A DNA stretch of 64,000 nucleotides from Vicinamibacterales bacterium (GCA_036012905.1 DASCQF010000010.1:7991-71990); one strand, 5' to 3'. Shown: positions 19,697-60,081, counted from the first letter of the stretch. Notes: generated by a model not told the origin, from the sequence alone. Numbers and translations are program-made.

Positions 19697-21454
19697 ATGC
19701 GTATACAAGCTGGTGTTTCTCGAGGCGGCCTGGTCATCGCGGTTGTCGTGACGGCCTGCGCGGCTGCTGGGTTAACCGCTCATGCCCAGTCTTCTGCCGA
19801 GTTCGTACCGGTCACCGACGCGATGCTCCAAGCGCCAGCGCCAGAGGACTGGCTCATGTGGCGCCGGACGCCCGACGGCTGGGGCTACAGCCCACTCGAC
19901 CAGATCACCCGCGAGAACGTCGGCGAGCTGCGCATGGTCTGGACGCGCGCCCTGGGCCGCGGCAGTCAGCAAGGGACCCCGCTGGCCTATGACGGGGTGC
20001 TCTACATGCCGAACCCGCGGGATGTCATACAGGCGATCGATGCGACCACCGGCGACCTGCTGTGGGAGCATCGACGGGAGGTGCCGGACAGCGTGGGCGA
20101 CGGCGGGCTGGTGACCAACAACCGCAACATCGCCATCTACGGCACGCGCATCATCGACACGAGCATCGATGACCACGTGTTCGCGCTCGACGCCGAGTCG
20201 GGCGACATGGTGTGGGAGACCGAGATACTCGACTACGAGACCAATCCCGCCATGCAGAGCTCCGGGCCCATCATCGCAAACGGAAAGGTCGTCTCTGGCC
20301 GAAGCTGTCGCAAGCCCGAGTCGTGCGTCATCACCGCCCACGACGCGCAGACCGGCGCGGAGCTGTGGCGGCGCAGTACTATCCCTCGACCGGGTGAGCC
20401 GGGTGACGAGACCTGGGGCGACGTGGCGTTCGAAGACCGGCAACATGTCGGCGCCTGGATGGTGCCGAGCTACGACCCGGCGCTGAACTTGATCTATATC
20501 GGGACCTCGGTGACCTCGCCGGCGCCGAAGTTCATGCTTGGCGGCACCGAGCTTGCGCACCTCTACCACAACTCGACGCTGGCGCTCGAGGCCGACACCG
20601 GCGAGATTGCGTGGTACTACCAGCACCTCATCGATCACTGGGACCTCGACCATCCCTTCGAGCGGCTCCTGGTGGACACCGCTGTCGCCCCCGACCCGTC
20701 CGCTGTCAGTTGGATCAACCCCAGACTCCAGACCGGAGAGACCCGTAAGGTGATGACCGGCATCCCGGGAAAGACCGGGGTGGTCTACACGCTCGATCGC
20801 GAGACCGGCGAGTTTCTCTGGGCCACGCCGACGGTCACCCAGAACGTCATCAGCCACATCGACGGGGCCACCGGGGCGGTGACCGAGAACTCCGAGGTGG
20901 TCTTCAGCGGGCTCGGCCAGGAGGTGCTCGCCTGCCCCTCCTGGATCGGCGGCAAAGACTGGGAGGCGGGCGCCTACAGCCCGCTGACCAACACGATGTA
21001 CTATCCGCTGCGCAGCACCTGTGCGCGGGTCCTGTCGACGATGGACGGAGGCTTGGCGATCTACCGACTCGCAGCCCGATTCCAGCTCGCGCCAGGCACC
21101 GAGCAGCTGGGCACCGTGCATGCGATTTCGGCCGAAACGGGCCAGACGGCCTGGATCCACGAGCAGCGGTCCGCCACCATGTCGCTCGTCACCACTGGGG
21201 GAGGACTGGTCTTTGGCGGCGACGTAAACGGACGCTTCCGCGCCCTCGACCAGGAAACGGGCGAGGTGCTGTGGGAGATTAACCTCGGGTCCTCGGTGAC
21301 CGGGTTTCCGATCAGCTTCGCGGTCGACGGCCGGCAGTACGTGGCGGTCAGCACCGGCAACGCCGCGACCGCGTCGGGGTTCATTCGCCTGACGCCCGAG
21401 ATACGCCCGAGCGCCGGCAACAACCTGTTTGTCTTCGCGCTCCCGGAGCGATGA
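19697..21454 (+). CDS. PQQ-binding beta-propeller dehydrogenase-like protein, HWDLDH subfamily, paralogue 1
   Basis: AAGGAG RBS; signal peptide; WLMWRRT..GWGYSPLDQI; GRSC; YQHLIDHWDLDHPFER; GKQY-type C-terminus. Confidence 0.88.
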   Translation: MRIQAGVSRGGLVIAVVVTACAAAGLTAHAQSSAEFVPVTDAMLQAPAPEDWLMWRRTPDGWGYSPLDQITRENVGELRMVWTRALGRGSQQGTPLAYDGVLYMPNPRDVIQAIDATTGDLLWEHRREVPDSVGDGGLVTNNRNIAIYGTRIIDTSIDDHVFALDAESGDMVWETEILDYETNPAMQSSGPIIANGKVVSGRSCRKPESCVITAHDAQTGAELWRRSTIPRPGEPGDETWGDVAFEDRQHVGAWMVPSYDPALNLIYIGTSVTSPAPKFMLGGTELAHLYHNSTLALEADTGEIAWYYQHLIDHWDLDHPFERLLVDTAVAPDPSAVSWINPRLQTGETRKVMTGIPGKTGVVYTLDRETGEFLWATPTVTQNVISHIDGATGAVTENSEVVFSGLGQEVLACPSWIGGKDWEAGAYSPLTNTMYYPLRSTCARVLSTMDGGLAIYRLAARFQLAPGTEQLGTVHAISAETGQTAWIHEQRSATMSLVTTGGGLVFGGDVNGRFRALDQETGEVLWEINLGSSVTGFPISFAVDGRQYVAVSTGNAATASGFIRLTPEIRPSAGNNLFVFALPER

Positions 21455-21486
21455 TGACTGCTCTCCTGGAGCGCCGGGGCCGACCC

Positions 21487-22041
21487 CTATGGCGTGGTGC
21501 GGGCAGGTCGAAACGAGTAATCAAGCAGATACTGTCTGGCGATTCGTCGAACGCCCTTTCGGATGGAGCGTGTTGCGCTCGAGACCGTGATCGTGGCCCC
21601 TGAGACGGCATCGATGTCTTGGCCAACCTCGAACTGATCGAAGACGCTCTTGCCCGTGAATTGATCGTGGAAGCCGGACGTGTCGACCGTAAAATAGCCG
21701 AATGGCTCTCGATTCTCGATCATCTTGCTGCCGGTGAGCGTTCCCCCGATCGCCATCCCGACCAGGATCTTGATCGGTCCTGTGTAGCCCCGCTCCAGCG
21801 GCTCGAGATCGGTCGTGTAGAAGACGAACCCGGCCAGCACTTGACGGCCTGTTTGCGGGTCGGTCGTGAACGCTTCGAAATACGGCAGATCGCCGGCCTT
21901 GAGTGAAAAGTCCGAGGCGTCCGGAAAGACCTCATGCAGTTGACCGGCCTCTTGTCTGGCACGCGCCGCCTGGAAGCTGGCGTTGGCACAGAGCACGATA
22001 CTGCCTACCATCGTCGCAACGACGAGGCGTCTACCGGTCAT
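21487..22041 (-). CDS. Secreted FMN-binding (flavinylation-motif) protein
   Basis: Signal peptide; GYTGPIKILVG; DAVSGATITV matches the ApbE target DxxSGAT. Confidence 0.88.
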   Translation of the reverse strand: MTGRRLVVATMVGSIVLCANASFQAARARQEAGQLHEVFPDASDFSLKAGDLPYFEAFTTDPQTGRQVLAGFVFYTTDLEPLERGYTGPIKILVGMAIGGTLTGSKMIENREPFGYFTVDTSGFHDQFTGKSVFDQFEVGQDIDAVSGATITVSSATRSIRKGVRRIARQYLLDYSFRPARTTP

Positions 22042-58173: not shown

Positions 58174-58194
58174 CGGTGTTGACGACGGCCGACC

Positions 58195-60081
58195 TCACTC
58201 CGGCAAGGCAAAGACGAACAGATTGTTGCCGTTGCTCGGGCGCAGCTCGGGCGTCAACTGCAGGAAGCTCGGTGTGGTCGCGGCACCGCCGGTGCTCACG
58301 GCCAGATACTGCCGACCCTCGACCGCGTAACTGATGGGAAATCCGCTGACCGGTGAGCCGAGGTTGATTTCCCAGAGCACCTCGCCTGTCACCTGGTCGA
58401 AGGCGCGAAACCGTCCGTTCGCATCGCCACCGAAGACGAGCCCGCCACCGGTCGCCACCAGCGACAGGGTCGCCGCCCGCTGTTGGTGCAGCCAGGTGGT
58501 CTTGCCGGTTTCGGCCGAGATCGCATACACCGCGCCAAGCTGCTCGGTGCCCGGCGCGAGCTCATGCCGGACCGCAAGCGCGTAGATGCGATGTGACGCG
58601 TCAGGCGAGGTCGTCGCCAGCAGGCGCTGACACATGTTGCGCAGCGGAAAGTACATCGTGTTGGTCAGGGGGCTGTAGGCGCCGGCTTCCCAATCCTTTC
58701 CGCCGTGCATGTTGGGACAGGCGAGGACCTCCTGTCCTTCGGCGCTGAAGACGACCTCCGCGTTCTCGGTCACCTCGCCGGTCGCGCCGTCGATGTCGTT
58801 GATCACGTTTTGCGCGATGGTTGGGGTGGCCCAGAGGAACTCGCCCGTTTCGCGGTCCAGCGTGTAGACCACCCCGGTTTTCCCGGGAATGCCAGTCATC
58901 ACTCTCCGCACCTCGCCCTGCTGAAGCCGCGGATTGATCCAGCTCACGGCGTCGGGGTCCGGGGCGACGGCGGTGTCGAGGAGCAGGCGCTCGAAGGGAT
59001 GATCGAGATCCCAGTGGTCGTTCAGATGCTGGTAGTACCAGCGGATCTCCCCGGTATCGACGTCGAGCGCCAGCGTCGAATTGTGATACAGGTGCTTGTT
59101 GTCGATCCCGCCAAGCATGAACTTCGGGGCCGGCGAGGTGACCGACGTGCCGATGTAGATCAACCGCAGCTCGGGGTCATAGCTGGGCGGCATCCAGGTG
59201 CCGACATGCACCCGATCTTCGTATGGCACCCCGCCCCAGGTCTCGTCGCCCGGCTCCCCAGGCGCCGGGATCGTCCGGCGCCGCCACAGCTCTTCTCCGG
59301 TACGCGCGTCGTGCGCCGTGATGACGCACGATTCGGGCCCCCCGCTGGGCCGGCAGCTGCGTCCTGAGATCACCTTGCCATCGGCAATGATCGGGCCGGA
59401 ACTGTGCCCAACCGGCGTCACCTGGTAGTCGAAGATCTGTGTCTCCCAGGCGATCTCCCCGGTGGCGACATCGAGCCCGAACACGAAGTCGTCGTCGCTC
59501 GTGTTGATGATGAACCGGTCGAAGATCGCAATGTTCCGGTTGTTGCGGGCGTTCCCGCCTACAAAGTCGTACACATCGTCTGGGAGATCGCGGCGATGGG
59601 CCCACACCAGGTCGCCCGTCACGGCGTCGATCGCTTCGATGACGTCGCTCGCCTGGGGCATGTAGAGCACACCGCCATAGGCCAGAGGCGTTCCCTCCTG
59701 ACGCCCCCGCGCCAGCGCCCGCGACCAGACCATCCGGAGCGCACCGACGTTGTCCCGTGTAATCTGATCGAGCGGGCTGTAGCCCCACCCATCGAGCGTC
59801 CGGCGCCACATCAGCCAGTCGTCAGGCGCTGGACGCTGGAGGATGGCGTCCGTGACCGGGACGAACTCCCTCGTGGGCGGTGTCTGTCCCCTCACCGGTG
59901 TCGGGACCAGGATCAGAGCGAACGCCGCGATCGCCGCACACAGCATCGCTGCGACCAGAGGCTGCCCGGGCATCCGTACGGGCCGGCACTCGCCCCGGCC
60001 ATTCGCGGTCCCGCAAATCAGTGTTGCCCTCGTCATAGCGTGAACCGCGCGAATCTGTACGCGTCGCTGAATCTGACTCAT
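58195..60081 (-). CDS. PQQ-binding beta-propeller dehydrogenase-like protein, HWDLDH subfamily, paralogue 3 (start uncertain)
   Basis: GRSCRPSGGPESC; YQHLNDHWDLDHPFER; near-identical blocks to 31229..33046. Confidence 0.88.
   Translation of the reverse strand: MSQIQRRVQIRAVHAMTRATLICGTANGRGECRPVRMPGQPLVAAMLCAAIAAFALILVPTPVRGQTPPTREFVPVTDAILQRPAPDDWLMWRRTLDGWGYSPLDQITRDNVGALRMVWSRALARGRQEGTPLAYGGVLYMPQASDVIEAIDAVTGDLVWAHRRDLPDDVYDFVGGNARNNRNIAIFDRFIINTSDDDFVFGLDVATGEIAWETQIFDYQVTPVGHSSGPIIADGKVISGRSCRPSGGPESCVITAHDARTGEELWRRRTIPAPGEPGDETWGGVPYEDRVHVGTWMPPSYDPELRLIYIGTSVTSPAPKFMLGGIDNKHLYHNSTLALDVDTGEIRWYYQHLNDHWDLDHPFERLLLDTAVAPDPDAVSWINPRLQQGEVRRVMTGIPGKTGVVYTLDRETGEFLWATPTIAQNVINDIDGATGEVTENAEVVFSAEGQEVLACPNMHGGKDWEAGAYSPLTNTMYFPLRNMCQRLLATTSPDASHRIYALAVRHELAPGTEQLGAVYAISAETGKTTWLHQQRAATLSLVATGGGLVFGGDANGRFRAFDQVTGEVLWEINLGSPVSGFPISYAVEGRQYLAVSTGGAATTPSFLQLTPELRPSNGNNLFVFALPE

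Follow-up and report, generated by a model that had tools for sequence, protein, structure and literature searches.

The stretch of DNA considered here (hereafter, the window) comprises 64,000 nucleotides from a Vicinamibacterales bacterium (GCA_036012905.1 DASCQF010000010.1:7991-71990). The window is dense in periplasmic oxidoreductases and, among them, three open reading frames (ORFs; paralogs 1, 2 and 3 in Table 1) are closely related eight-bladed-propeller members of the PsADH / L-sorbose dehydrogenase / DepA family of pyrroloquinoline quinone (PQQ) dehydrogenases. An earlier reading of the sequence (the original prediction) had proposed them as a candidate new quinoprotein class with a rebuilt, His-rich active site; they are, instead, a new example of an already crystallised family and not a new enzyme class. 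When translated from the start codons of that prediction, all three stretches are intact open frames. For paralog 3, the Met37 codon at nucleotide 59973, just ahead of a hydrophobic signal-like segment, appears the likelier start. Paralogs 2 and 3 are, respectively, 71% and 73% identical to paralog 1, which is far above chance, against 30-33% for the other PQQ proteins of the window. Four sequence blocks, MTGIPGKTGVVYTLDRETGEFLWATPT, TSVTSPAPKF, LYHNSTLAL and GGKDWEAGAYSP, occur in all three paralogs. Read by eye, the three N-termini are basic, then hydrophobic, and end in an A-x-A-like site and, in consequence, the paralogs look Sec-exported.

Table 1. Features of the window; positions are counted from its first nucleotide, and residues follow paralog 1 unless otherwise indicated.
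Feature	Position	Strand	Remarks
Paralog 1	19697..21454	+	585 aa; PQQ beta-propeller dehydrogenase, PsADH/SDH/DepA family (SDH, sorbose dehydrogenase)
Paralog 1, putative Sec-type signal		+	residues 1-30, ending in AHA ahead of Q; read by eye
Paralog 1, GRSC-x5-C loop	20297..20326	+	residues 201-210; right after an inner strand, at the place of the canonical GGEYG Glu ligand
Paralog 1, TSVTSPAPKF	20504..20533	+	residues 270-279; at the place of the canonical GTGNP Asn ligand; contains Lys278
Paralog 1, DHWDLDH loop	20633..20653	+	residues 313-319; Asp316, aligned catalytic base; Asp318, +2 acid (D-x-D)
Paralog 1, IPGKTG	20762..20779	+	residues 356-361; Lys359 column invariant in the six-protein window alignment
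Paralog 2	31229..33046	-	605 aa
Paralog 2, DHWDLDH loop	32060-32080	-	same motif
Paralog 3	58195..60081	-	628 aa from the start codon of the original prediction
Paralog 3, DHWDLDH loop	58999-59019	-	same motif
Canonical type I PQQ alcohol dehydrogenase (comparator)	17680..19413	-	Cys-Cys, GGAEYG, GNG, WDYT; TIGR03075 569.5 bits (cut-off 480)
Second canonical-type alcohol dehydrogenase	52713-54347	+	HDEHDWDA; His for the usual Trp, Asp at +2
GDH-like PQQ propeller	33178..34992	-	604 aa
GDH-like PQQ propeller with internal cytochrome c domain	60113..62134	-	673 aa; CGSCH, its residues ~458-523
MBL-fold and NHL/SGL (gluconolactonase-like) ORFs	28894-31409	-	
Second NHL/SGL ORF	15904-17142		
Six-bladed GSDH (PF07995)	42334-43647	-	437 aa
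FMN-dependent dehydrogenase	13627-15096		CQNCH
DUF pair	21903-25404	+	
ORF of doubtful coding status	36168-37919	-	583 aa

The window contains its own term of comparison, a canonical type I PQQ alcohol dehydrogenase (ADH) that reads ICCGD, GGAEYG, GTGNGSP and GDDWDYTAT at the four relevant sites. Aligned with it, the paralogs: (i) lack the Cys-Cys of the ICCGD column; (ii) show SGRSC-x(5-8)-C at GGAEYG; (iii) show GTSVTSP at GTGNGSP; and (iv) show xDHWDLDHP at GDDWDYTAT. The translations and the alignment thus bear out what the original prediction had described, i.e., three proteins that share the quoted blocks, are devoid of Cys-Cys, GGEYG and GNP, and carry GRSC, TSVTSP and QHLxDHWDLDHP in their stead. 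Equally correct was its observation that two other Cys pairs are conserved: C204/C210 and C413/C442 (numbered along the 585-residue paralog 1) are kept in 99-100% of 134 sequences of the TSVTSP/DHWDLDH subfamily, as well as in 14-15 of 15 representatives of sister clades (for C204/C210, 100% and 15/15). Arg169, Trp280, Lys385 and Asp342 (P0001 numbering) fall in columns that are invariant in the six PQQ proteins of the window. The Lys359 column is presumably the PQQ-binding Lys/Arg position.

Family membership is clear from both sequence and fold. PF01011 is found in the three paralogs (E-values from 1e-56 to 1e-61), while NCBIfam returns sub-threshold matches only, with 310-329 bits for TIGR03075 against its cut-off of 480.05. 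In a phmmer search of the PDB, paralog 1 finds five solved sequences: (i) 4CVB/4CVC, the ADH of Pseudogluconobacter saccharoketogenes (PsADH), with 458 bits (E 5e-136); (ii) 9M2C, with 449 bits; (iii) 4MH1, the L-sorbose dehydrogenase of Ketogulonicigenium vulgare, with 440 bits (E 2e-130); (iv) 7WMD/7WMK, a deoxynivalenol-oxidising ADH of the DepA type, with 438 bits; and (v) 22VI, with 415 bits. The E-values of these five span 1e-123 to 5e-136, and all other PQQ enzymes in the PDB stay at or below 188.5 bits, the score of the next best match (1YIQ, from another family). An AlphaFold2 model built on an 87-sequence alignment (pLDDT 92.9, pTM 0.91) has 4CVB as its top Foldseek match, with TM-scores of 0.91/0.94, a root-mean-square deviation of 1.8 A and 41% identity. 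Next come 9M2K, 9M2C, 7WMK, 22VI, 7WMD and 4MH1, and the seven top chains, 4CVB included, have TM-scores of 0.80-0.95; the lanthanide enzyme PedH (6ZCW) reaches only 0.82, at 3.3 A. The proposal of a new quinoprotein class fails because the paralogs group with a Ca-PQQ family that has characterised and crystallised members (4CVB, 4MH1, 7WMD, 9M2C, 22VI), which is the very outcome that the original prediction had set against itself.

A residue-level alignment with the five solved sequences makes clear which peculiarities belong to the family and which to the paralogs. None of the five has a vicinal Cys-Cys, and the two conserved Cys pairs are present in all of them. Where the paralogs have G-R-S-C...C, the solved enzymes have G-S-T-C/S...C; where the paralogs have G-T-S-V-T-S-P-A, they have G-S-T-x-x-G-P-A, and neither version carries the canonical Asn. 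PsADH itself is reportedly devoid of the vicinal disulfide, and three of its four Ca ligands are said (by Rozeboom and colleagues, 2015) to differ from those of other PQQ-ADHs and to be sited elsewhere in the chain. Hence, the three absences were already known from a crystallised Ca-PQQ enzyme, and the active site can be called rebuilt with respect to canonical type I ADHs but not with respect to five solved members of its own family, which show the same absences. In the catalytic loop, L-P-R-D-N-W-D-(S/Q)-E-(C/S) of the solved enzymes corresponds to L-(I/N)-D-H-W-D-L-D-H of the paralogs. Asp316 aligns with the catalytic Asp of W-D in all five solved sequences (Asp-311 in DepA; PMC10975547). 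Counted from Asp316, the paralogs have Asp for Glu at +2, His for Cys at +3 and His for Asn at -2. Taken as marks of membership, Glu at +2, Cys or Ser at +3 and the Glu of P-A-x-E are present in all five solved sequences, and the paralogs have Asp318, His319 and Lys278 at these positions.

Within the 134 subfamily sequences, D313, D316, D318, H310, H314, H319, R202, K278, H250, H288 and H291 are all conserved to at least 97%, and D316 and D318 to 100%. The specificity of these residues was checked on the 15 sister-clade representatives and on 84 full-length representatives of clusters at 50% identity. Many of the 50%-identity representatives also have the His of Q-H and the D-x-D-H pattern; only H314, H250, H288, H291 and K278 are specific to the subfamily and, within the motif, only His314. 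Where the subfamily has Lys278, the nearest sister clusters, like all five solved enzymes, have the Glu of P-A-S-E or P-A-A-E. Moreover, one of the copies in the same genome has Asn at position 314, as do the solved enzymes. Since the Q-H His and D-x-D-H are widespread, and Asn takes the place of His314 in one copy of the same genome, the His-rich character stressed by the original prediction is only partly special: the His of Q-H and the one after D-x-D are largely family traits, and His314 is the subfamily's own.

The three paralogs are by no means alone. The genome (5.2 Mb in 195 contigs, 97% complete) yielded 4598 ORFs of at least 300 aa, among which 102 match the profile of the eight-bladed PQQ-propeller family at E <=1e-20. 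Twelve of the 39 best carry the exact subfamily signature (11 DHWDLDHP and one DNWDLDHP); the remainder are about 11 other SDH-like types and, for the rest, canonical GGEYG-type ADHs. The three close copies of the original prediction are thus real, but they belong to a set of 12. A FastTree phylogeny (LG+gamma; 118 sequences, 565 columns), from which three window duplicates and five fragmentary or mis-aligned rows were left out, was rooted on canonical ADHs only, and its support values are moderate. In it, the 12 genomic copies are monophyletic (support 0.80) and, together with P0124, P0125, P0126 and P0129, form the subfamily clade (0.78). For the D-x-E-C representatives P0140 and P0150 to be included as well, the clade has to be enlarged to at least 23 tips (0.85), with D-x-D in 19 and D-x-E in two. 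P0140 and P0150 are close to the solved enzymes (624-722 bits), while P0135, a D-x-D-H representative, is as far from them (484 bits) as the window protein. From these sequences, the characterised Ca enzymes look like a small D-x-E branch inside a mostly D-x-D radiation.

Regarding distribution, a word-indexed search gave 7851 hits at E <=1e-20 out of 8000 scored candidates, the best 120 being 79-100% identical to the window protein; the named sources among these 120 are Acidobacteriota, Vicinamibacterales and metagenome-assembled genomes of Gammaproteobacteria, some of them from Tara. At E <=1e-30, an exhaustive search of the 50% representatives recovered 1216 clusters. When 30 related genomes were searched, matches at E <=1e-150 turned up in 15 of the 18 that belong to the same GTDB family (1-25 each) and in one of the 12 from other families of the order. 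In one acidobacterial family, the TSVTSP/DHWDLDH subfamily has expanded to roughly a dozen copies per genome.

The 12 genomic copies differ from each other in well-delimited places. Averaged over columns, the entropy is 0.12 bit in the catalytic loop (310-323) and 0.00 in P-G-K-T-G. On the contrary, the most variable segment is 556-563 (2.36 bits), followed by 448-455 (1.80 bits), where insertions reach 11 residues, by 134-141 (1.79 bits), the loop that bears Cys-Cys in canonical enzymes, and by 411-418 (1.13 bits). Leu-413 of DepA aligns inside 411-418, and its Leu-556 lies no more than one residue from the 556-563 loop (there is a slight offset in numbering between the two Devosia enzymes); both Leu residues are placed 3.4-3.8 A from the docked substrate in the published model (PMC10975547). 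The analysis supports a diversification of the paralogs in putative substrate-side loops, in agreement with the original prediction, which had linked the retention of several copies to substrate diversification; the assignment of the variable segments to the substrate side is by homology to DepA.

The best explanation for these observations, held with middling confidence, is that the three paralogs are three of 12 copies of a lineage-expanded, Sec-exported, periplasmic PQQ dehydrogenase subfamily whose metal is most likely a trivalent lanthanide. By homology, PQQ would be placed on the propeller axis, Asp316 (the Asp of WD) would act as general base, and a hydride would pass from the C-H of an alcohol or sugar to C5 of PQQ. 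Because the family lacks the vicinal disulfide, electrons would then leave to a separate periplasmic cytochrome c. The metal beside PQQ would be a trivalent lanthanide, as the +2 position holds Asp (D-x-D) and not the Glu (D-x-E) of the Ca-dependent crystallised members. Since the copies differ mainly in their substrate-side loops, they probably act on various alcohols, sugars or polyols of dissolved organic matter. In all this, PQQ use, the metal, the substrates and the electron acceptor are inferred, and family membership, fold, motif conservation, copy number and loop variability are direct results of the analysis. In the literature, D-x-D serves to diagnose lanthanide-dependent PQQ dehydrogenases (PMC11996626). 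In fact, lanthanide use by the D-x-D variant of SDH-like enzymes is already predicted in print: Voutsinos et al. (ISME J 2025; PMC11996626) describe two SDH clades and a third sister clade with D-x-D sequences only, modelled on 4CVB and putatively lanthanide-dependent. That third clade occurs in many copies in few genomes of (marine) Acidobacteria and Gammaproteobacteria, with up to 70 lanthanide-type enzymes per genome (PMC11996626), and a 2026 preprint carries such predictions to soil (10.64898/2026.07.10.737718). As for the different metal put forward by the original prediction, a metal other than Ca is plausible, but the change from D-x-E to D-x-D points to a lanthanide and not to a His-ligated transition metal.

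Several points weigh against a lanthanide-dependent PQQ dehydrogenase. The Ca-dependent members of the family already have an acidic residue, Glu, at +2; hence, an acid at that position does not suffice to diagnose lanthanides, in contrast to the situation in XoxF/PedH, and the exchange of D for E may not switch the metal. At +2, D against E discriminates less well than the D against Ala, Ser or Thr of XoxF/PedH. The canonical Glu and Asn ligands are absent from the paralogs and, if the Glu that Lys278 replaces is a metal ligand, the site is more different than D-x-D implies. Among their limitations, Voutsinos et al. state that biochemical characterisation is lacking for all members of the D-x-D SDH-like clades (PMC11996626). 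In the window, no cytochrome c gene adjoins paralogs 1 or 2 (CxxCH scan of ORFs of at least 70 aa), and no clue to the substrate emerges from the gene neighbourhoods of the 12 copies, which are heterogeneous. Finally, PqqC (TIGR02111) was not found in the 97% complete genome, where the best candidate for PqqE scores 78 bits against a cut-off of 381.

The matter of cofactor supply has, nevertheless, a simple reading. The PqqC search itself works, as PqqC was found above the cut-off in six of 31 genomes, including one of the same genus; all six belong to the same GTDB family and carry 7-25 matches to the window protein. According to Munder et al. (PMC12124388), aquatic Vicinamibacteria without PQQ biosynthesis have PQQ importers of the PqqU type. 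The genome has nine matches to TonB-receptor Plug domains. As no PqqC gene was found in the genome, PQQ is probably scavenged, this being the simplest reading. An observation in its own right is the extreme quinoprotein load thus placed on an apparently scavenged cofactor: about 100 PQQ-propeller ORFs in a genome with neither PqqC nor an above-cut-off PqqE.

It is possible, though less likely than a lanthanide, that the family and the chemistry are as described but that the paralogs share the Ca2+ of PsADH, K. vulgare SDH and DepA, with the +2 Asp standing in for Glu. All characterised relatives contain Ca2+ or are assayed with it, the K. vulgare enzymes known as KvADHs (PMC10301637) and DepA with CaCl2, and 4CVB is called calcium dependent (PMC11996626); besides, Glu to Asp is a conservative change at one column, and Ca in seawater is far above the lanthanides. 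Such an exchange has to be reconciled, however, with the strict maintenance of D-x-D (D316 and D318 are invariant in the 134 subfamily sequences), with its majority in the surrounding clades (19 of 23 tips) and with the statement that the motif tracks lanthanide use in every PQQ-ADH group tested so far (PMC11996626). Some way further from the lanthanide reading lies an unlikely proposal that starts from what is peculiar to the TSVTSP/DHWDLDH subfamily, i.e., Lys278, the fixed Arg202 and the extra H250, H288, H291 and H314 on the presumed active-site face: either the metal site has been re-partitioned, with fewer carboxylates and with His or Lys as second-shell residues, or the pocket has become cationic to receive anionic substrates (uronates, aldonates, sulfated sugars, carboxyl-rich organic matter). 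Either version would make the subfamily a functionally new branch of quinoproteins.

New chemistry in the stricter sense, with the His residues (H310, H314, H319 and others, e.g., H250, H288 and H291) ligating a transition metal or with another cofactor in place of PQQ, is very unlikely. Six His are at least 97% conserved, four of them (H314, H250, H288 and H291) are peculiar to the subfamily, and a conserved Glu has given way to Lys278; judging from the strand order of the model, these His and Lys278 would lie in loops of the active-site face. The failure to find PqqC in the genome would also suit another cofactor, and 4CVC is reportedly a Zn2+ complex of PsADH, which would mean that the family site could accept a transition metal in crystals. 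On the other hand, the catalytic Asp is intact, and so are Arg143, Trp254, Lys359 and Trp422 (585-aa numbering), which we take to be PQQ-binding; H310 and H319 recur across many clades of SDH-like proteins of the ordinary kind; a paralog in the same genome has, like the solved enzymes, Asn at 314; relatives that make PQQ are as rich in matches to the window protein as indicated above (7-25); and the fold superposes on PQQ enzymes at 1.8 A. Hardly credible is a last alternative, the cofactor-less or "empty" quinoprotein homologue with a non-redox role such as binding or scaffolding, an idea that NCBIfam attaches to some acidobacterial paralog families in genomes without PQQ synthesis. It draws on the same lack of PqqC and of a bona fide PqqE, on partial matches of the paralogs to TIGR04528, and on the sheer number of paralogs (the 102 propeller-profile ORFs). 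Those matches (237-259 bits) are, however, below the TIGR03075 scores; PQQ import is documented for Vicinamibacteria (PMC12124388); and a nearly invariant catalytic loop (0.12 bit) beside variable surface loops is the pattern of an enzyme family. With regard to the profile itself, TIGR04528 ("acido-empty-quinoprotein group A") gave 258.7, 236.8 and 243.6 bits for the three paralogs, under its curated cut-off of 650, and this identity was rejected on score.

The surroundings of the paralogs are varied. Paralog 2 lies co-directionally and directly downstream of a GDH-like PQQ propeller gene, and directly upstream of MBL-fold and NHL/SGL genes on the same strand; the latter could serve for lactone hydrolysis after sugar oxidation, a pairing not seen at the other nine loci. 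Paralog 3 is directly downstream of a PQQ propeller gene with a cytochrome c domain. This domain is inserted within the propeller and not appended C-terminally, and about 50 other genomic ORFs of 650-780 aa give the same split profile match. The CxxCH scan of the window yielded two sites, namely, that cytochrome c domain and the CQNCH of the FMN-dependent dehydrogenase, an ORF without a cytochrome c Pfam domain. No operon partner recurs across the 12 loci (three in the window and nine other copies), whose neighbours include PQQ propellers, esterases, MBL-fold, NHL/SGL and SDR proteins, a sulfatase, a TPP enzyme, ankyrin proteins, and DUF1800/DUF1501 and DUF1592/DUF1552 pairs. Pairs of the DUF1800/DUF1501 and DUF1592-DUF1588-DUF1585/DUF1552 (HXXSHH) kinds adjoin three of the 12 paralogs, one in the window (Table 1) and two elsewhere (L007:13188-14972 and L011:11757-13981); large ankyrin-repeat proteins occur at two of these three loci, and the adjacency of the pairs to the paralogs may be coincidental.

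Other quinoproteins of the window deserve mention on their own account. The two window ADHs differ at the metal signature: the second one reads HDEHDWDA, while the comparator reads DDWDYT, with Thr at +2 as in the Ca type. The HD-x-HDWDA form is present in five further genomic copies. The window also encodes a six-bladed GSDH, a class (PF07995) within which a 2026 preprint proposes lanthanide-binding PQQ enzymes. An ORF at 36168-37919 has no Pfam or NCBIfam match, failed the codon-position GC filter and may not be a gene.

If D-x-D SDH-like enzymes do use lanthanides, rare-earth biochemistry would widen from small volatile alcohols to sugars and polyols, an idea already in print. It would also help to explain why some marine and soil Acidobacteria that import the cofactor have dozens to about 100 periplasmic PQQ enzymes. 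What is added here is: (i) a well-defined, highly conserved subfamily, a good target for a first biochemical test; and (ii) its Glu-to-Lys and His changes, which the published motif-based survey leaves aside (PMC11996626).

Among known systems, the closest are PsADH (P. saccharoketogenes, 4CVB/4CVC) and the nearly identical deoxynivalenol dehydrogenases of the DepA/QDDH type (7WMD/7WMK, 9M2C, 22VI), with propeller TM-scores of 0.91-0.95 and 38-41% identity in structural alignment. Common to them and the paralogs are the lack of Cys-Cys, a Cys-loop-Cys in place of GGEYG, a non-Asn loop in place of GNP, the WD Asp and both Cys pairs. The paralogs differ from them in: (i) D-L-D-H for D-S/Q-E-C; (ii) Lys278 for the Glu of P-A-S-E; (iii) His for the Asn before Trp; (iv) a one-residue deletion (L-IDHW versus LPRDNW); (v) Arg202 for Ser (GRSC versus GSTC); and (vi) the loops 134-141, 448-455 and 556-563. 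The L-sorbose dehydrogenase of K. vulgare (4MH1) belongs to the same family (TM-scores of 0.80/0.92), and the KvADHs are likewise several close paralogs in one genome, with broad specificity for alcohols and sugars (PMC10301637). Nevertheless, K. vulgare SDH and the KvADHs are assayed with Ca2+, have D-x-E-C and are ~37% identical to the paralogs. The SDH clade of Voutsinos et al. (PMC11996626) resembles the paralogs in D-x-D, in having 4CVB as best match and in its many copies per genome. That clade is reported from marine bacteria, and Tara is the source of some of the close homologues that the window protein has; the paper treats only the two Asp and not the Lys and His changes of the window subfamily. 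Lastly, PedH, ExaF and XoxF share with the paralogs the PQQ propeller, the periplasmic location and D-x-D after Trp but, in contrast to them, have the canonical Glu and Asn ligands and the vicinal disulfide, and pass TIGR03075.

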